Of a DNA stretch of 64,000 nt, positions 6,978 to 39,708 are shown in pieces (position 1 is the stretch's first letter; every line of letters starts with the position of its first letter). The DNA comes from Octopus vulgaris. Lineage: Eukaryota. The DNA lies in contig OX597821.1 in assembly GCA_951406725.2 (NCBI GenBank), positions 24,056,001 through 24,120,000 of the forward strand. The letters are read 5' to 3'. The notes under the pieces were generated by a model. It was given only the letters and a program-made list of their open reading frames with translations, had not been told where the DNA came from and searched no databases. The position numbers and the translations under genes were made by a program.

Positions 6978-8350
6978 CTATCCGGGGCGTTCATCCGTAA
7001 TGTAATCGAGTAACTCCTCCTGTTCTATAACACCTGGCAAACTGTCATATGGAATGTATTGCATTACGCCTACAGCTATATTTGAATACAAATTTATTAA
7101 TTTCATTACTGTCTCTCTTTCTACAATTGCCGCCTTTATTTGGTCATCGAATATCTTCGGGTTCAGTTTTACTCTAGTTAGATTTTTTATATTCGCTAAT
7201 TTCTTCTTAATTTCTTTGTCCTTTTTGTACAACATTATAGCTTTGAGATTTCTTCCTTTTGGCCTTCGTCCTTCCTTACATATTTTCAGTTGTTCTTCCA
7301 TTTTTCTTTCCCATTCTTTCTCTTCCTCCCACATTGAAACTTCACTCACTTTCGTTTCTGTATCTCTCTCTTCGTGCATTCGATCCTCTATCTCGTCGGT
7401 AGACTTCTTTTTAGCGTTTTTCTTTTTTTTTGTGCTTTGGGTGGTGATTCCACCCGCGTTCTCTTTCTATCCTCTTTTTCTTCTGTTCTTTCCTTTTCTT
7501 TCTCCTTCACCAACTCGTCACCACTTTCCACATTATCTGTAGTCACGATTTCCTCTTCCGCTTGCAATTCCACATTCGCCTTTTGTAACTCCTCTGTCAA
7601 AGCCTCCAATGTTGTCGTCTTCTCTTGTACTTCTCTTAGCGGACACATATCCTTCATGTGACCTCTACTTTTACATTTGTAACACACTGGGGGTCTCCCC
7701 TCCACCACGACTCTGAGACGTGTCTCGTCGGGGAACACCAACTCCTCTGGGATGTTATACAGGTCTGGCATGGTTATGTGAACCAAAGCCTGCACCGCAT
7801 AACCCCACCAATTTATTTCTTTCGGCTTTTCTACCTTCAGTATGTCGACGCTCTCTTTGCAGTTGAATATTATTGCTGCTACAATTCTTTCCGTGTCCAG
7901 TTCCGGTGAAATTTTACTAATCCGTATTCTCACTGCTCTTTTTCCACAATAGTTAGGTAGTAATACCCATTTTTCGGATTTCAATACTGTCGTGGCGTTT
8001 CTCTTCGCTTCGTCTTCGTTTTCAAAACGAACGTCTACTGTCGCGTATTTTCTACCTCTATTGTAGAAGGTAGTTTTTCCTTTAATTTCCTGTAGACACT
8101 TCTCGATTTCTTCCACCTCTGCAACTTCTATTCTCTTCGAAACCACACTCCACGTTCTGTACGTTATAATTCTCTTCTCAACTTCTTTCACTTCGTCTTC
8201 AGGTGGTGTGACCCTCAGACAATCACCTTCCTTCTTGAAACTGTCGTAGTACTTCCTCAAACTCTCCTTCTCGATAACTATTTCTTCCAACTGTAGTTCG
8301 CTCGCAGCCAGGCCTTTGCCTGCTGCCCTCGCATAAGTTTGGGCTTGCAT
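6978..8350 (-). CDS. L1/Tx1-type ORF1 protein (~457 aa if one frameshift in the A-run near 7420 is corrected), CCHC zinc knuckle
   Basis: MQAQTYARAA start; RRM-like middle; VVVEGRPPVCYKCKSRGHMKDMCP knuckle; charged tail continues in ORF 6978-7379. Confidence 0.75.
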
Positions 8351-9906
8351 ACCCAACAAAAACTCCAACAATTCACCACGCCGCAACAACTTCCAACAAC
8401 AAAATCAACAAAATCCAACTCACAGCCGTAATACACAATAACCGTAATACAAAATAACCGACACAAACACTTCCACCTTTTTGAGTATCCGGTCTGGAGT
8501 CGAAAGACGAAGAATAGTGAAAGCTGGCCTTTTTATAAGGAAAAAATGGCTCAATGATGCAGGCCTTATCCGAAGGCTGTGATTGGCTGGCTTTACACAG
8601 TGGCGCGAAATAAGTAGAGAAACAAACCGCGCCACATGCCAACCAATCAGATCAGTGGACACAACAGGGACAAACCATCCAAAGATGACTGTAATCTCAA
8701 ACGAGATCATTCTTATTGTGTTTCTCAAACAGTGAGGATATCAAATATGCTACATATGTCTAAAGAAAGAAAGAACTACAAAAGTTTATATTTTTGAATT
8801 CTCCAAAAGAATGTCGTTTGCGGTTTTATGTGCGCGTGCGCACACACACACATACACACACACCAGTCCATCCTGCGATTATGACTGTCGGTTTACGTAT
8901 CTACCTTCTCCATCGCCACCCTTCCTCTTCGGCATGTGTCTTCAGTGTGTTTAAATTTGGTTGCTGCTTATCTCTAACTTGAATTTCTGTAACGATGTGT
9001 TTGCTCCATGCTGGCCTTATAAGCTGCATCTACCGGTTGCAGCTGTAAGTGTGACGTCATGCATTACCAAATACTGAAACATACATAAAAAATAGAATGA
9101 AGGAATACCAAGTCATACCCATGTAACTTACACACATACACACACACACACATACATTAATAACGAACAATGAGGACGAGTGCTCAACACCGCCTTGGTA
9201 GACAAAAATTCTTTATTTATGGGTTAAGGCTACCATTGGTTTCATGTTAAAATCAAAGTTGGAATACATGGATGTGTAAATGAAAACTATAAGCATTTCG
9301 TGATTCTGCTCGTAAATAAGAACTATCAAATTGCTCAGTGCCATCAAGAAACCTCTTGAATAAGTACTGAAAATTTTCATGAAAAAAATATAGAGTAACG
9401 TATGAACAAAGCGATGGGTTAAGTTTGAAGTACCAGTCAATTTGATCTTCACAATAAATCTGATTCCCCTCTCAGTAAAGAACCATGCCATCAGTAAATG
9501 CTTAGTTGTTTTTAAAAGTGCTTTACAATAAAGACACTATTTTCACACACAAACTGCGATTTGGCAGAGTTAATTGTAAGAACGTAGGGGGGTAATGCCT
9601 TGCAGTATTTATTCCGGCTCTTTGTGTGTTGAATTATATTTCCTCGGGGTAAACTTTGCTTTCATTCGTCCAAGGTCGATAGAATAAAGTACTAGGAGCG
9701 ATAATATTGACGAACCATTGCCTTCCAAATTGTTGGTCTTGTGCCTAAATTAGAAACAATTATGTTCATACGCACATTTGATAAGTGTACATATTATTAA
9801 CTCGAAACTTTATATTCTTGAGTCACTGTAGCAACTCAGAAATTTAATATATATATATATGTAACAAATGTTGTTCTTTGGTCCAGGAGTCACCAAAATG
9901 TAACTA

Positions 9907-17292: not shown

Positions 17293-18339
17293 AGGATCTT
17301 TTCTTTTTGATGGACGGAATTTTCTAGTTAACTAAAAAATTTGAAACTTCGTATACTGGTAGAATGTGTCAAAAGAAAACATTATTGTAAACAAAATTGA
17401 AAACAAAATTGTAATTCGTAACTTTAACGTAGTTTTATTCTTCGAATTTTAACCAATGAAATCGCAGCATCTTCGAATTTTAACCAATGAAATCCGAGCA
17501 TTTGAGCTCAAATCATTTGCTGCGTAATCGATTTTGATAAACAATCATAGCAGACGCACGTCACACACACACACACACACAAACTCTCTCTGTCTGTCTG
17601 TTTGTCTCTCTCTCTCTCTCTCTCAAACACATGCATATACATTTGCACAAGCACATAGTAATTTATATATAAGCGTACACACACATACAAACGGAGATAT
17701 ACATACACACACATACGCACACAAGACTACATACACGTTTGTGTTTTGCCCCTTGCCGCAACAAATTTGCACAAAAGGTAAATAAACCAGAAGGAGTGGG
17801 GGTCAATGTTTCATCGTTTCGGGGTCAATAAATTAAGTACCAATTACGCACTGGTGTCGAGGATTTTTTCCCAAATTTATATCACAGCTTCCGATAAGCT
17901 GGGGCATTCTTTTATGAAAAAATATTTCGCAAATTTTTACTTCTGGCCCTTGAAAACCATGGGAGAACACTTTTCTGTAAAAAAAAAATAAAGAAAATAT
18001 TCAAAAAATATCGTTAATATTTTTATTGGGCGACGAAATTCATCGATTTAAGAGATATAGCTGTTATTTCTAGCACATGTAGAATACAGAAGACAGAAGA
18101 GAGAAAGGATGAATAAGACGTGTGTGTGTGAGTTTTTAGACGCAGCAAATGGTTTGAGCTCGAATGCTAGGATTTCATTGGTTAAAATTCGAAGAATAAA
18201 ACAACGTTAAAGTTACGAATTACAATTTTGTTTTCAATTTTGTTTACAATAATGTTTTCTTTTGACACATTCTACCAGTATACGAAGTTTCAAATTGTTT
18301 AGTTAACTAGAAAATTCCGTCCATCAAAAAGAAAAGATC

Positions 18340-18341
<2 letters not shown>
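17293..18341. mobile_element. Non-autonomous DNA transposon with ~200-bp TIRs (GGATC.. / ..GATCCC)
   Basis: 17293-17525 is close to the reverse complement of 18140-18341; the left arm has a ~31-bp internal tandem duplication. Superfamily not determined. Confidence 0.85.
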
Positions 18342-18375
<34 letters not shown>

Positions 18376-18390
18376 AAGATCCCATATATA

Positions 18391-21300
18391 GAGAGTTGGC
18401 TTGCCGAAATGGCACATTGCTTCCCTTTCTTTATCCTTACCGAGACTCACCTGAACAACACCCATATGGACGCAGAGGTGAAAATAAAAGATTACACCAT
18501 TGTTCGTGCGGATCGCACAGACCGAAATAAGGGAGGGACAGCCATCTTTATCCATGACTCCTTTTCACTTGATGCCAAGGACATATTTTCCAATGGCTAC
18601 TGTGAATCGGTATCACTATACAACAAAGCCAAGGACATAACCATTGTTGGTCTTTACAGGCCTCCCCAGGCACCTCTAAAGTACTTTGAAGAGTGCCTTA
18701 GCAAAGTCAAGTCCTTCCTTCGGAAGTACCACTCCGGAAACATACTAGTGATGGGTGATTTTAACCTCCCTCATGTGAACTGGCCCACAAATACTCTGAA
18801 GTTAGGCAAGTGCTCTACATCAGAGAGAGCAGCAGCAGAACTGCTCTTTAATCTGATGGATGAGTATTTCCTGACTCAGCTAGTGCTTGAACCAACGAGA
18901 CAGAATAAAACGATCTTGGATCTGGTATTGACCAATCACTCTAGCTACGTTCACAGTATTTCAGTCGAAAAAACTCTCCTCTCAGACCACGACATGGTAC
19001 TCTGCAATCTTAATTCCCGACATATAAAAACCAAACCAGCCAATCCCATTCCATGGCACCCATTTGACAACATAAACTTCCACAAAGCGGACTGGGGAAC
19101 AATCAGAAAGGATCTGTCTTCCATCGACTGGTCTTTTACTCTCAATTCCTCTCATATTGAGACCGCGTGGCAGCACTTTGAAAACATTGTCACCTATACA
19201 TGCTCTAAACACGCTCCCAAGAAATCTACTAACACAAACAGAAACCGGCTCCCTAAAAAGAAAAAAAACACTCATCAGGCGCATCAAAAGACTCAACAAA
19301 AAATCAACCAATTAAAATATTCCCACACACAACATCCACATTCAACAACAATGAAAAGACTAGAGCTGGAAAAACTTCATCTGCAGACCAACATGAAAAC
19401 CTCCATTGAAAATCAAAGAGCTGTGGAGGAACAATGGGTAATCAAAAACATCAAACAGAACCCAAAAGTGTTCTATTCTTATGCAAATAAGCATAGAACC
19501 ACTGTCTCACCCATTGGGCCATTGATTGATGATAACGGCATTCTCCAACACGATGCTAAAGAAATGGCAGAAATACTGCAGAAACAATACTGCTCTGTCT
19601 TTAGTGTCCCCACTGATATCGACGTAAGGGAAACGAACGAAGTTGACTCCCAACACAAAATCTCAGACATAACCTTCACTGCCACCGACATCGTAGCAGC
19701 AATAAATGAGGTCAAACATTACTCTGCTGAAGGCCCTGATAGATTTCCCGCTAGTTTCCTGAAGGAATGTAGATACCAACTTGCAGTCCCTCTGACCAAC
19801 CTCTGGAGAAATTCGTTAGACGCAGGTTATATACCGAAACAGTTTCTATCCCAGTCGGTCATCCCGGTTTTCAAACAGGGAAACAGATCCCTCGCAGTCA
19901 ACTATCGCCCAATCTCACTCACCTCCCACATCATTAAAGTGTTTGAAAGAGTGTTAAGATCAAGGATAGCTGACTTCCTGGAGACCCACAAACTCCTAAA
20001 TGCAAATCAGCATGGCTTTCGCTGTGGCAGGAACTGTCTAACACAGCTCTTGCACCACATTGAAGATGTACTCAAAGCCTTGGGAACAGGTTCGAACTCT
20101 GACGTCATATATCTTGACTTCAGTAAAGCGTTCGACAGGGTAGACCATAACATCCTACTCTCAAAATTGGCAAATGTTGGAATCCGTGGAAAAGTTCTAC
20201 ACTGGATTAAGTATTTCCTGGCGAATAGAACACAACATGTTGTAGTTGATGGAGTCCACTCAAACCCAGCAAAAGTCACCAGCGGTGTTCCCCAGGGAAC
20301 TGTTTTGGGTCCGCTACTCTTCATAATTTACGTAAACGACCTTTCCAGTGTCGTACATTACTGCAAAGTGAAAATATTTGCTGATGACACTAAGCTCCAG
20401 CAAATTGTCAATGAAGAAGCAGACCGAACTCAACTCCAGTCTGATCTATATGCTGTGAGTCAATGGGCAGACAGAAACAAAATGCAACTGAATGAGGGAA
20501 AATTTGAGCTGATGCATTTTGGAAGAAATTCCTCACTAAAACAACCATACTCTCTTCCTTCAGGGGAACCGCTCACAGCCTCTAACAATATCAGAGACTT
20601 GGGTGTAATTGTTGATGACGATCTCAGTTGGAGTGCACACATCAACAAGAAGGTCGATATAGCTCGTAGGATGAGTTCCTGGATCTTAAGAACTTTCCGG
20701 TCCAGAGAACAAGGTGTCATCATACCACTTTTTTCCTCCTTTGTACGGCCACACCTTGAATACTGCTGCCCATTGTGGTCTCCTCACGCAAGACAAAACA
20801 TCTCCAGAATTGAGTCACCCCAGAGGGCACTCACTAAACAAATTGAAGGCATGGCTGCTCTCGATTATTGGGATCGCCTTAAAGCCTTGAAACTTTACTC
20901 CCTCCAGCGTCGCCGTGAGCGGTACATCATTTGTACGATGTGGAAAATATACCGCCAACTTTGCCCAAACGACCTAAACATTAGCTTCAAGGTTCATCCA
21001 AGACTTGGACCACGGGCTATACGTCCCCTGCCCAATTCAAGATCACAACATACATGTACACTGCAACATAATTTCTTTTCCTCAACAGGCCCTGCCCTAT
21101 TTAACATTGTCCCGAGGGAGATCAAAGAGAAAAAGGATCCCATCAACTTTAAACAGAGTCTGGATAGATTCCTTCAAAGAATACCAGATAAGCCACCCAT
21201 AATTGGATACAACTCACCCAACAAGAACTCACTACTTGAACAAAACTGGATACAACTCACCCAACAAGAACTCACTACTTGAACAAAACTTGACTTAAAC

Positions 21301-27240: not shown

Positions 27241-28505
27241 TATCAGATCATCCCATAAGTTCTGTCCGAATTTTGAATAAAGAAGACAAGTAATCAAATG
27301 TTATATTTAATTTTAATTTAATCATCAATGTACTTTCCCCGATTATCTATGACTTCCTTCCATCTATTTACAAGCTTTTTAATCCCATCACTTTTGGTTT
27401 CAAAGTAAAGAACTCTGAAATGTTAGTTTCGACCTCCTCCTGGCTTGCGAAAGTTATGTCCCCCAAGTGATTCTGTAAGCTGGGGAACAAATGGTAGTCT
27501 GAAGGAGCAAGGTTGGGAGAATAAGGTGGATGAGGAAATTTTCCCAACCAAGCTCTTCGATCTTGTGATGTGATCTTTGTGGGATCGCGCATTGTCCTGA
27601 TGAAACATCACTCCTTTTCAATTCACTGAAGCAGGTCATTTTTCTTCAAAGCTTGGTTCAAACGCTGTAATTGCTGACAGTTGACTTGAGCATTGATTGT
27701 TGCATTAGGTGGTAACAATTCAAAGTGAATTACTCCTTTGCAATCCCACCAGATAGAGAAAAGAACTTTTTTCCCATGAAGTTCCCTTCTCTGTTGTGGT
27801 TGAGCCTTTTCCCTTTTACCAAGCCACTGTTTATGACGTTTGACATTTCGATAGAAGATTAATTTTTCGTCACTAGTTACTAGTCTATCCAAAAAGAGTG
27901 AAATGAGTTCGCGAGAATGGAGAGAAGAGCAGATGTCAACTCGGGATTTGCTGTTGCTTTTGGACAATTCATGAGGCACCCATTTTCCAAGTTTAGGAAC
28001 CTTTCCAAGTTGTTGAAGATGATGAACAGTTGTATGGTTTGAACTAAGCTTTATTGCCAATTCTTCAACCGATAATGCAGGATTTTCTTCAAGTAATGCC
28101 TCAAGGAGCTTATCATCAAACTCGACTGGACGTCCTGTTCGATCTTCATCTTCAAGGCTGAAATCTCCACTTCTGAATTTTGCAAACCATCTTCTGCAAG
28201 TTCTTTCATTCAAGCATTCTTTCCCATAAACTGAGTGTATGTTTCGAGTCGCTTCGGCTGCAGAGTTTCCTTTTTTGTACTCATAAAGTATTATGTGCCT
28301 CAAATGCTTTTTGTATACTTCTATGTTAGAAATGGTTTTAATTAAAGAAATTTTAATTCTATTAGTCTGTAAAATGATATTTAATTAGTTTAAGTGTACA
28401 GAAATGCATAAAAATAATTTTTAATTCCATTAGACATTCTAAAATACTATTAAATTTCATTCAATTCTAAAAAAGGTAAAATCGGACAGCATATGTGTGA
28501 TGTTT
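27241..28505 (-). mobile_element. Mariner (DD34D) element with disrupted transposase (~27330-28325)
   Basis: HTH, WVPHEL, VTSDEK, FHQDNARSH, HPPYSPNLAPSDYHLF. Start codon appears mutated to ATA; frameshifts; TIR core tgtccga.tttt / aaaatcggaca. Confidence 0.92.
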
Positions 28506-35629: not shown

Positions 35630-38312
35630 CGCTTCTCACACACAGACGAAATAGTTAAAGCAAACATGGTACATGGTCCATGTGGGCGTGGATTCAACAT
35701 AAACACACCATGCTTGAAGGACAGCATATGTTCAAAAAGATTTCTAAGAAGGTTCCTACAAGAAACTCAGACAGGTGCTGATGGGTATCCATCATACAGA
35801 CGCAAAAAAACAGAAGACGGAGGTTTCACAGCAACTATCGGACAGCACGATATTGATAATAGATCGATTGTTCCATACTACCCACTCCTGTCAAAGACTT
35901 TCAATGCCCACATAAACATTGAGTTTTGCAACTCCGTTAAATCCATCAAGTACGTTTGCAAATATGTAAACAAGGGTTCTGACGCTGCATTGTTTGGACT
36001 TCAACCAGAATACTGCCAGGATGAGGTGACGCTTTCCAATTCACCAACGACACCCCGCCATTCAACAGCTTGCAGTGCACCTGGAAAATGGTCAAAGAGT
36101 GTACTTCACCGATGCTAATGCTTCTCTGTTGGCAGAGGAACCAAGGGATAGCACACTCAATGCATTCTTCAAGCTTTGTCAAGTGGATCCATTCGCTCAA
36201 ACCTTGCTGTATCTACATCCACAGATTCCATCGTACTACACTTGGAATGAAAAAAAATGGGCCCCACGGAAAGCAGGTCAAAATGTTCATGGATACCCTG
36301 GCATTAAGTTTCACACTTGCCTTGGGCGAGTATACACAGTGCATCCCACTCAACAAGAGTGCTTCTACATTCGTCTACTACTGCATGAGGCCAGAGGGCC
36401 AACGTCTTTCCAGGCCCTAAAAACCGATCATGGACATGTCTGCACAACATACAGAGAAGCCTGCTATCGACAAGGTCTGTTAGAAGATGGTGCACAATGG
36501 GATGCAACTTTAGGAGAGGCTGCTTTATCACAATCACCTAAAAGTCTCAGGGCACTATTTGCAGTATTACTACAGGCATGCGAACTGTGTGATCCGGCCA
36601 CTCTATGGCTCAAATATAGAGACAACCTGGCTGAAGACTTTCAGCGCCAAGCTCAACTGCTCTATCCTGACATGGAGGGAATCAGCAATGAAATCTATAA
36701 CAAAACACTCATTGACATTGAAGACAGAATTGCTAAACTGGGTGGAAATGAATTGTCGACGTATGGCCCGCCACAAGCATTCAGGTCAGGGTCAAATAGC
36801 CTTCCCACTGCTGTCATTCGTGAAACAACCTACGACACTCAATCGCTTTCAAATACATTGTTGAAAATGAGCCTAAATTACTTCCGGACCAACTGCAGGC
36901 CTACAGAACAATTCTTAACAGTGTACACCAACGCGAGGGACAAATCTTCTTCCTCGATGCTCCTGGAGGGACAGGAAAAACATTTATTACAAAGCTTCTC
37001 CTTGCAGAAGTTAGGTAGCATCAGGACATTGCAGTAGCTGTAGCCTCCTCTGGCATTGCAGCTACTTTGTTACCCAGTGGCAGGACAGCACACTCAACTT
37101 TTAAACTCCCTCTCAATTTAGCAGCATCCGAAATGCCTTCATGCAACATCAACAAAAGCTCAGATCAGGGACAAGTACTTAAAATGTGTCATCTAATTGT
37201 CTGGGATGAGTGCACTATGGCTCACAAGGAAGCTTTGGAAGCATTAGATAGAGCCCTGAAAGACATCTGAGACTGTCAGGCTCCAATGGGAGGTGTAACG
37301 CTTTTGTTGTCAGGTGATTTCAGGCAAACTCTTGTCATTCCGAAAGGCACTAGAGCAGATGAAGTCCAAGCATGCCTAAAGTCCTCTACCCTGTTGAATC
37401 ATGTTACAATCCTCAGTCTCACCACTAACATGAGGGCTCAGCTACACGGCGACAAAATGTCCACAAAGTTTGCACAGGACATTTTGAAGGCAAGTGAAGG
37501 CAAGATGCCTCTCGATGCTGCAGGACAAATGGAAGTGTGGTCATTTTCCTCTGTTGTTAATTCTGTAGATGACCTCAAAATCAAAGTCTTTCCCAACTTC
37601 ACGCAAAACTACCAAAATCACAATTGGCAGTGTGAAAGAGCTCCAAAAAACGTCGCTGTTAACAAAATTAATCAACAGCTAATGCATTCTCTTCCCGGCA
37701 CTATACACACTTACAAGTCTGTTGATACAATTCCAGATATAAATGAAGTTGTGAACTATCCTCCTGAATTTCTCAATTCACTGGAGCCTCCTGGACTACC
37801 TCCACACATATTAGCACTTAAAGTTGGAACTCCTGTAATGCTACTCCGCAATCTGGAACCACCAAGAGTTTGCAATGGAACACGACTGGTGATAAAGAAA
37901 ATGATGTCACATGTTATCGAGGCGATCATTCTTTCTCGACGTGGAAAAGGTGATGACGTCTTTATTCCAAGAATTCCTCTTACTCCATCAGGAACAGAAA
38001 TTCCATTTACATTCAAAAGACTGCAATTCCCGCTTCGTGTCAGCTTTGCCATGTCCATTAACAAATCTCAGGGTCAAACCCTCTCTGTAGCTGGTCTTCT
38101 GTTGGAACAGGCCTGCTTCTCGCATAGGCAACTGTATGTTGGCTGCTCAAGAGTAGGAACCAAAAGAAACCTTTTTGTATATACTCCACAAGGAAAAACA
38201 AGGAACATTGTTTACAACGAGGTGTTATAATCTCAACAGCCAGGAGGTATATACATGATCCCCTTTTTTTAACAAACTTCATGTACTTTCATGTATTTAT
38301 ATTAATATACAA

Positions 38313-38439: not shown

Positions 38440-38514
<75 letters not shown>

Positions 38515-38619
38515 ATATATATACATATATATATATGTATATATATGTATATATATGTATATATATTTATATATGTATATATATGTATATATATGTATCT
38601 TTATATATGTATATATATA

Positions 38620-39156
38620 CAAATTGAGATAGGGGTTGTAAATACAACCCTCCATGGGATAACATATATCCAATATACTGCTAGTGAAGTACCCTATAGA
38701 TGTATATGAGACATTTGCAAGGGTATCGTAGGGCCTCCTCGGAGATATACATATACATATGAGTGCACTCATATGTATATTTATATCTCCGAGGAGGCCT
38801 TGTGATGTTTTTGTGAGTGTCTCATTTGTATCTGTGTATTGACCTACCATAAAAGGCTAATATTGGTAAAATGAGACATACTTATCTACATGGCCGAAAC
38901 AGCTGTAAGATGTAATCTATACTTATATTTATATTTACTTATATTTATATTCTCTTTTATATATATTCTATTTATTATACAACATTACTCTGTTTTGTAC
39001 ACTTTTTTATGTACATTCCTTTATGTACACTGATTTGTTCTGCTTTTTATATTTAACCCTACAGTCTCTTATGTGGTGGTTTAATAAAGTATGTGATTGA
39101 GTATTATCTGGTAATTGATATTTGATTTAGATGTATTTCTCCATTTTCTTATCTTG
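38620..39156 (+). mobile_element. (TA)n-inserted non-coding element with hammerhead and long hairpin (Penelope pLTR/retrozyme-like)
   Basis: Ends confirmed by the deleted copy at 761-943. Confidence 0.8.
38782..38914 (+). ncRNA. Type I hammerhead with 92-nt loop II; core variant CCGAGGA
   Basis: tatatct-CCGAGGA-ggcc-(92 nt)-ggcc-GAAAC-AGCT-GTA-agatgta; 7-bp stem I. Confidence 0.7.
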
Positions 39157-39211
<55 letters not shown>

Positions 39212-39290
39212 ATATATGTATATATATGTATATATATGTGTATATATAAGTATCTATATGTATATATATATATATGTATATATATGTGTA

Positions 39291-39346
<56 letters not shown>

Positions 39347-39348
<2 letters not shown>

Positions 39349-39708
39349 AATAAGAAAATGGAGGAACAGATTCATTTCAATCATCAACTTACAGATATTA
39401 CCAATTCATATTATTATTAACTACATAAATAGGAACATCCAAGTCCAACAAAATAAAGCAATATACATCAATAAGCAAGATAATACCATAAAAATAATAC
39501 ACATAAAATGGATCTTACAGCTGTTTCAGCCTGTAGATAAAGGTATCTCATTCTGCCTATATTAGTCAGATGTATTGAGGTAATATGCAGTTAAAAATGA
39601 GTTACTTATATATATATATATCTGAAGGCCTCATCAGAGATTTTATTGTACAATTATAAAGATATAAAAAGCAAATATAAATATGAAACAAAATACACAG
39701 ACACAAGA

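Follow-up and report, generated by a model that had tools for sequence, protein, structure and literature searches.

A-to-G changes in a hairpin copy of a putative Penelope-like element of Octopus vulgaris: a likely fossil of RNA editing

A 5'-truncated copy of a repeat, assigned by its motifs to the Hydra-clade Penelope-like elements, carries an inverted 5' end in the genome of Octopus vulgaris, and the hairpin formed by its two arms bears A-to-G changes on one strand. We consider it likely, with a probability of roughly three in four, that a double-stranded RNA form of this hairpin was hyper-edited by ADAR and was then reverse-transcribed into a germ-line TA microsatellite. Indeed, changes of this single type, restricted to one strand and to a duplex, are the signature of ADAR, which makes editing of double-stranded RNA followed by germ-line reverse transcription the likely history. 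The copy lies in a stretch of 64,000 nucleotides (hereafter the window; assembly GCA_951406725.2, contig OX597821.1, positions 24,056,001 to 24,120,000), and positions given without a locus name refer to it.

The insertion consists, in this order, of (TA)n, an inverted 75-nt tail, an inverted 71-nt arm, a forward copy running from a central TGCA to 39156, and again (TA)n (Table 1). The hairpin proper (38695-38836, centre 38765/38766) folds into one structure of -91.7 kcal/mol (z -15.4), a stability reached by none of 200 shuffled sequences, and the minus strand of the same segment folds at -66.6 kcal/mol. When TGCA is taken as a 4-nt loop, the stem has 69 positions, made up of 53 Watson-Crick pairs, 14 G-U pairs, 2 pyrimidine-pyrimidine mismatches and no A-C; the 71 bp of the preliminary description are therefore to be read as 71-nt arms, and both the fold and the recount of pairs agree with the hairpin, the centre and the mismatches reported there. 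The split of 14:0 between G-U and A-C has a two-sided p of 1.2e-4. Furthermore, when 426 inverted-repeat pairs from 1.29 Mb of the octopus genome were scored, this hairpin came out as the most asymmetric. That survey, of 199 partly overlapping stretches, is biased: 80 of them surround family copies picked among the first 100 of the 313 listed, and some loci overlap.

The asymmetry had initially been read either as selection on plus-strand RNA structure or as A-to-I edits fixed by reverse transcription, with the proposal that an alignment of copies be used to polarise the changes. Compared with 28 close copies, the 3' arm presents seven A-to-G changes and one G-to-T, the changed sites being A in 26-28 of the 28; compared with the reverse complement of copy L004, the 5' arm presents seven A-to-G and one A-to-T. 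All 14 G-U pairs (seven per arm) correspond to plus-strand A-to-G changes and none to C-to-T, the complete tally against L004 being 14 A-to-G, no T-to-C, no C-to-T and 2 transversions. The polarisation was repeated with about 150 matches per arm and had the same outcome, a lone T-to-C in this larger set being a mirrored family polymorphism at core position 7. At one of the sites, 38802, two of the 28 close copies also have G; the partner in the opposite arm is nevertheless still T, so that this A-to-G change arose after the inversion. A divergent subfamily as the source of either arm was considered and rejected: searched genome-wide, the patterns carrying the changes match this locus only, and hence no subfamily supplied the G. 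The proposal of edits fixed by reverse transcription is the part of the original reading which these data sustain, and selection on RNA structure is the part to which they lend no support.

Table 1. Features of the insertion and of its predicted hammerhead motif (window positions)
Feature	Position	Strand	Remark
Left target, (TA)n-type microsatellite	38440..38619	.	Ends of the family adjoin (TA)n in most copies
Final 75 nt of the 3' tail, as an inverted copy	38620..38694	-	0/27 plus-strand A changed
5' arm, inverted 71-nt copy of the hammerhead region	38695..38765	-	Polarised against family copies
A-to-G sites of the 5' arm	38702, 38717, 38721, 38722, 38723, 38728, 38731	+	Also A-to-T at 38705
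Palindromic TGCA, hairpin centre and junction of both arms	38764..38767	.	One occurrence in 2.8 Gb
3' arm, start of the forward 5'-truncated copy	38766..38836	+	Polarised against family copies
A-to-G sites of the 3' arm	38802, 38807, 38815, 38817, 38828, 38834, 38836		Also G-to-T at 38781
Inner 34 bp of the stem	38732..38799	+	0/19 A changed to G
Remaining pseudo-LTR up to the family's first 3' end	38837..39156	+	0/89 A-to-G in 38837-39147
Right target, (TA)n-type microsatellite	39157..39346	.	Sequence
Type I hammerhead motif (predicted), from the 3' arm onward	38782..38914	+	Read by hand from the letters and the fold; architecture as in PMC4209133
Hammerhead stem I	38782-38788/38908-38914		
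Hammerhead core CCGAGGA	38789-38795		
Hammerhead stem II	38796-38799/38892-38895		Loop II of about 90 nt
GAAA	38896-38899		
Palindromic stem-loop III	38900-38905		Predicted cut after 38907

Within the hairpin, 14 of the 50 A have become G, whereas the flanking parts of the insertion retain all of their 116 A (p=1.2e-8), and the background rates of 0.7-1.1% would predict 0.4-0.6 changes among 50 A (P<1e-15). Both arms are affected, the changes are confined to the duplex, and the outermost one, at 38836, falls in the last pair of the stem. Concerning their context, the 5' neighbours of the changed A are T (8), A (5), C (1) and never G. The A that follow a G were changed in 0/9 cases, versus 14/41 for the others (one-sided p=0.038); this depletion of upstream G, reported for hyper-edited sites across animals (PMC5625713), is weak when the outer stem is considered by itself (p=0.076), and nothing can be read from the 3' neighbour. 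If duplex DNA had been the target, the strands of a palindrome would be expected to be treated alike and the arms to stay complementary, which is not the pattern here; A-to-G on the same strand in both arms points to a folded single strand, or to the two strands of one duplex, as the substrate. One trait usual in ADAR hyper-editing, its spread over the whole duplex, is missing: 14 of the 31 A of the outer 37 pairs were changed (about 45%), and none of the 19 A of the inner 34 pairs, 14 of which stand in favourable contexts (permutation p about 3e-4).

The sequence of events that would best account for this pattern can be outlined in four steps. An earlier insertion would have generated a head-to-head inversion, a frequent outcome in this Penelope-like family; its plus-strand transcript would then have folded into the hairpin, or else sense and antisense RNAs would have paired. 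Within the outer 37 pairs, ADAR would have converted some 45% of the A to inosine, on both strands, and the reverse transcriptase of the family would finally have copied the edited RNA from its normal 3' end, reading I as G. The octopus genome has four adenosine-deaminase loci, one of them with a segment that matches at 100% identity a protein named Octopus vulgaris ADAR2-type editase, and hyper-editing has been described as exceptionally high in octopus (PMC5625713). The unchanged inner 34 pairs are not explained by a plain RNA hairpin, and our guesses are a bound protein, or a parent with a shorter stem to which the inner stem was added later by fold-back. As to this parent, exact-pattern searches of the 2.8-Gb assembly found none that shares the TGCA centre or the junction between tail and arm; its being missing from the assembly would be accounted for if the parent were lost or polymorphic.

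The spared inner stem and the missing parent are precisely what a different, and in our opinion unlikely, route would accommodate, in which ADAR acted on an RNA:cDNA hybrid within a single insertion. According to it, the cDNA started from the left target first copied the tail, then switched to 38836 and continued for 71 nt up to TGCA; the reverse transcriptase, stalled there, shielded the inner part of the hybrid, and ADAR edited both the RNA and the cDNA of the outer part left exposed; and the edited RNA was copied from the right end, both cDNAs being joined at TGCA. In such a twin-primed integration the 5' arm would be a cDNA strand deaminated by ADAR and the inner 34 pairs a footprint of the reverse transcriptase, a reconstruction to which we give an equally low probability. 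No parent would be required, and both the spared inner pairs and the arrest of editing at the tail-arm junction would be accounted for. The end of the inverted tail is identical to the base in three insertions (38694/38695 in the window, and those at L018 and L054), which suggests a preferred stop of reverse transcription; its recurrence at the latter two loci indicates that this end point forms at integration, as the hybrid route supposes. Moreover, a Penelope-like protein is able in vitro to cut the two strands of its target and to extend them (PMC11167929), full-length ADAR2 edits in vitro the DNA strand of a matched 90-bp hybrid (PMC5389660), and the arm that would have been DNA shows less editing than the RNA arm (7/20 versus 7/11, p=0.15). 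Nevertheless, only three sites reacted in those in vitro assays, where duplex RNA was the best substrate (PMC5389660); every insertion forms a hybrid and yet ordinary copies present no T-to-C cluster; and in the hybrid over the 75-nt tail 0/27 A were changed. If this deamination of DNA were the true explanation, octopus ADAR would be a germ-line DNA mutator of retrotransposition intermediates.

An origin of the G outside the chromosome must be considered as well. The chromosome would have A at these sites, and edited RNA reads would have entered the consensus at polishing or gap filling, the locus being then an ordinary hyper-edited hairpin. This would yield the same strand, the same confinement and the same neighbour bias, and would also explain the missing parent. 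We regard it as quite unlikely, since other near-perfect hairpins of the family have no such changes, the top pairs polarised among the other 425 inverted pairs gave no A-to-G cluster, and hyper-edited reads usually fail to align (PMC5625713). Errors of DNA reads passing through the palindrome would be expected to leave A-to-G in one arm and T-to-C in the other, a pattern that was not observed. A process other than those set out here has a similarly slim chance of being responsible. The fixation of ADAR-edited RNA by reverse transcription remains our preferred explanation.

The hairpin had also been proposed to act on a ribozyme. The predicted type I hammerhead begins in the 3' arm, which indeed holds the core CCGAGGA and, for stems I and II, their 5' strands. 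Furthermore, the mutual exclusion of hairpin and ribozyme is borne out in silico: the region deprived of the 5' arm folds with hammerhead topology (z -2.4), and the hairpin prevails when that arm is present. From this a built-in off-switch had been put forward, in which a plus-strand hairpin masking the hammerhead is maintained by selection, only transcripts lacking the 5' arm being able to cleave. Besides the mutually exclusive folds, the presence of only one mismatch in the inner stem over the core is in its favour; nevertheless, a divergence of about 1% would alone predict an unchanged inner stem. The density of changes, far above the background expectation, implies that purifying selection cannot be their source, the A-to-G excess reflecting a higher rate and not a filter. 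Selection for keeping pairs would have left C-to-T changes too, 14/14 A-to-G having in that case a probability of 5e-5 to 4e-4 for the whole stem and of 0.005-0.016 for the outer stem. In addition, the 14 changes weaken the hairpin from -112.9 to -91.7 kcal/mol, a loss of about 21 kcal/mol. The absence of the hairpin from other copies had been named beforehand as an observation that would refute the switch, and the hairpin does occur only once in the genome, in a family of about 313 copies; an inverted arm over the core is lacking in 75 of the 79 copies scored, the masking helix is not conserved across copies, and the stem contains no compensatory pair. The off-switch thus appears very improbable, and the masking of the hammerhead is likely a by-product without function.

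There may, besides, have been little to switch off, given the 2-bp stem III of the monomer and the U4C core, a known natural hammerhead variant of lower activity in vitro (PMC3088659). The U4C change had been described as mirrored in the opposite arm, and the C at 38790 is indeed mirrored; it is, however, the normal base of the family (86 exact matches to CCGANGA versus 5 to CTGANGA), which was copied in reverse. The whole recently spread family carries the U4C core together with a loop II of about 90 nt. Rfam returned no hammerhead at 38782-38914, neither at the gathering score nor among 62 weak matches, and its weak matches at the hairpin were microRNA models far below threshold, which we discarded. 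With the minimal type I hammerheads described from the pseudo-LTRs of Penelope-like elements (PMC4209133), the octopus motif shares the type I topology, a short stem III and a palindromic loop that favours dimers; it differs by its U4C core, its long loop II and the burial of half of the motif in a hairpin. In vitro, one Penelope-like element did not depend on cleavage for its insertion (PMC11167929). PMC4209133 already describes paired hammerhead motifs that lie on opposite strands at distances of 100-700 bp. In the window, a second and diverged hammerhead pseudo-LTR with a canonical CTGATGA core (39512-39652, minus strand) stands tail to tail with the hairpin copy across the TA repeat.

A repeat family with 313 genome matches to a 35-letter pattern includes the 3' arm together with the following 320 nt. 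The window copy has no open reading frame, and since a Pfam search gave no score to the reverse transcriptase or GIY-YIG domains of the hammerhead family, its Hydra-clade identity rests on motifs, compared with those listed in PMC8557442. At loci L122 and L123, reverse transcriptase motifs are followed on a single strand by a YIGAT motif and then by the hammerhead; RWK, DKT and CNCRSKNQC occur at L122, and CSLC...E...N...CLH at L106. The family has two 3' end points about 175 nt apart, (TA)n targets, a tail, an inverted 5'-truncated copy and a hammerhead in a pseudo-LTR. With the Hydra-clade elements of PMC8557442 it shares RWK, DKT, the CxCX5C linker, a C-terminal GIY-YIG with CxxC and CxH around E and N, the (TA)n targets, the hammerhead, the tail and the inverted 5'-truncated copy. 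In contrast, it measures about 4.9 kb, of which 2.2 kb form a spacer separating the endonuclease from the hammerhead, the Hydra elements being described there as mostly <3 kb, and it departs from them by the U4C core and the loop II of about 90 nt. A sister subfamily has some 60 extra bases upstream of stem I.

Inverted 5' pieces, already known from Hydra-clade elements (PMC8557442), are common in this family, so that a hairpin is an ordinary by-product of integration. In 80 stretches around listed copies, 79 of them scorable against the sister subfamily (ends are consequently approximate), 30 of the 79 copies have an adjoining inverted piece, and in 4 other copies of the 79 an inverted arm covers the hammerhead core. 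The arms of the other inverted ends in the family are near-identical and have no G-U excess. Long near-perfect palindromes outside the hammerhead region (L037:1770-3074, L050 and L061) have balanced mismatches. A second, abundant Penelope-like family is represented by L083 and L088, with intact 781-aa frames for reverse transcriptase and GIY-YIG at many loci; no sequence link connects it to the hammerhead family.

Neither 326 alignments of the family (208 kb) nor the 426 inverted pairs in 1.29 Mb, of which the top ones were polarised, yielded a second A-to-G case, and the fixing of edits looks rare, with one event in the 426 pairs examined. Several candidates were discarded along the way. Among those with clustered changes, L018, L100, L042 and L059 are diverged subfamilies, and L133 and L058 are microsatellites; the 7:0 count at L002 came mostly from a misaligned loop; L168, L169, L148 and L160 were not A-to-G only when polarised; and L011 had no relatives for polarising. 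The other top inverted-repeat matches outside the window are probably degenerate TA/TG repeats, and were lost under a complexity filter. Two SINE-like copies have transition clusters on one strand, with 10 C-to-T among 13 changes at L168:2876-3068 and 10 G-to-A among 23 at L169:9546-9656; they may carry the marks of cytidine deaminases or may merely be old.

The closest precedent that we found lies in hypermutated avian retroviruses (U3 of Rous-associated virus, and an inverted repeat of avian leukosis virus), with nearly 50% of the A of an inverted repeat changed to G, ascribed to ADAR, as summarised in PMC12925331. The share of changed A, about half, and the passage through reverse transcription are common to both; the avian cases are exogenous retroviruses, unlike the octopus one, a Penelope-like copy in an animal assembly with both arms edited and the inner stem spared. 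The DNA editing of endogenous retroelements by APOBEC (PMC2873906) likewise leaves clusters of a single type on one strand, fixed by reverse transcription, which are, in contrast, G-to-A and derive from cytidine deamination of cDNA; the changes described here are A-to-G, tied to a duplex and with the neighbour bias of ADAR. Finally, the hyper-editing of repeat-derived double-stranded RNA in octopus (PMC5625713) shares the dense A-to-G changes in palindromic or inverted repeats and the depletion of upstream G, but those edits lie in RNA transcribed from an unedited genome, whereas the hairpin copy has G in the assembled DNA. The available text of a bioRxiv preprint on retrozymes (10.64898/2026.07.22.740005) makes no mention of octopus or cephalopods. 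Taken singly, the components have all been described: the Hydra elements with their hammerheads and their inverted ends, hyper-editing by ADAR, and the fixation of edits by reverse transcription. In the part of the literature that was covered, we found no report of an ADAR-hyper-edited copy of a Penelope-like or other non-LTR element fixed in an animal genome.

RNA editing in cephalopods has been studied as a change of the RNA which spares the genome. If the G are chromosomal, ADAR met a retrotransposon duplex in the cell lineage from which the germ line derives, and its edits became heritable. A screen requiring only genomes follows, in which inverted repeat ends are sought with G-U pairs that all go back to A-to-G changes of a single strand, and it could gauge both the rate at which edited RNA returns to DNA and whether Penelope-like elements are restricted by ADAR. 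The hairpin copy itself is probably inert, a dead retrotransposon in which a single event of RNA editing has likely been fossilised.

Other mobile sequences populate the window. The minus strand of 615-1000 holds a further 3' end and tail of the family of the hairpin copy, and a 991-aa frame of the LINE endonuclease-reverse transcriptase type lies at 18307-21282 (plus strand). The remaining frames comprise a mariner transposase (27623-28384, minus), a piece of a Pif1-type helicase (37271-38230, plus) and a zinc-knuckle frame (7388-8404, minus).
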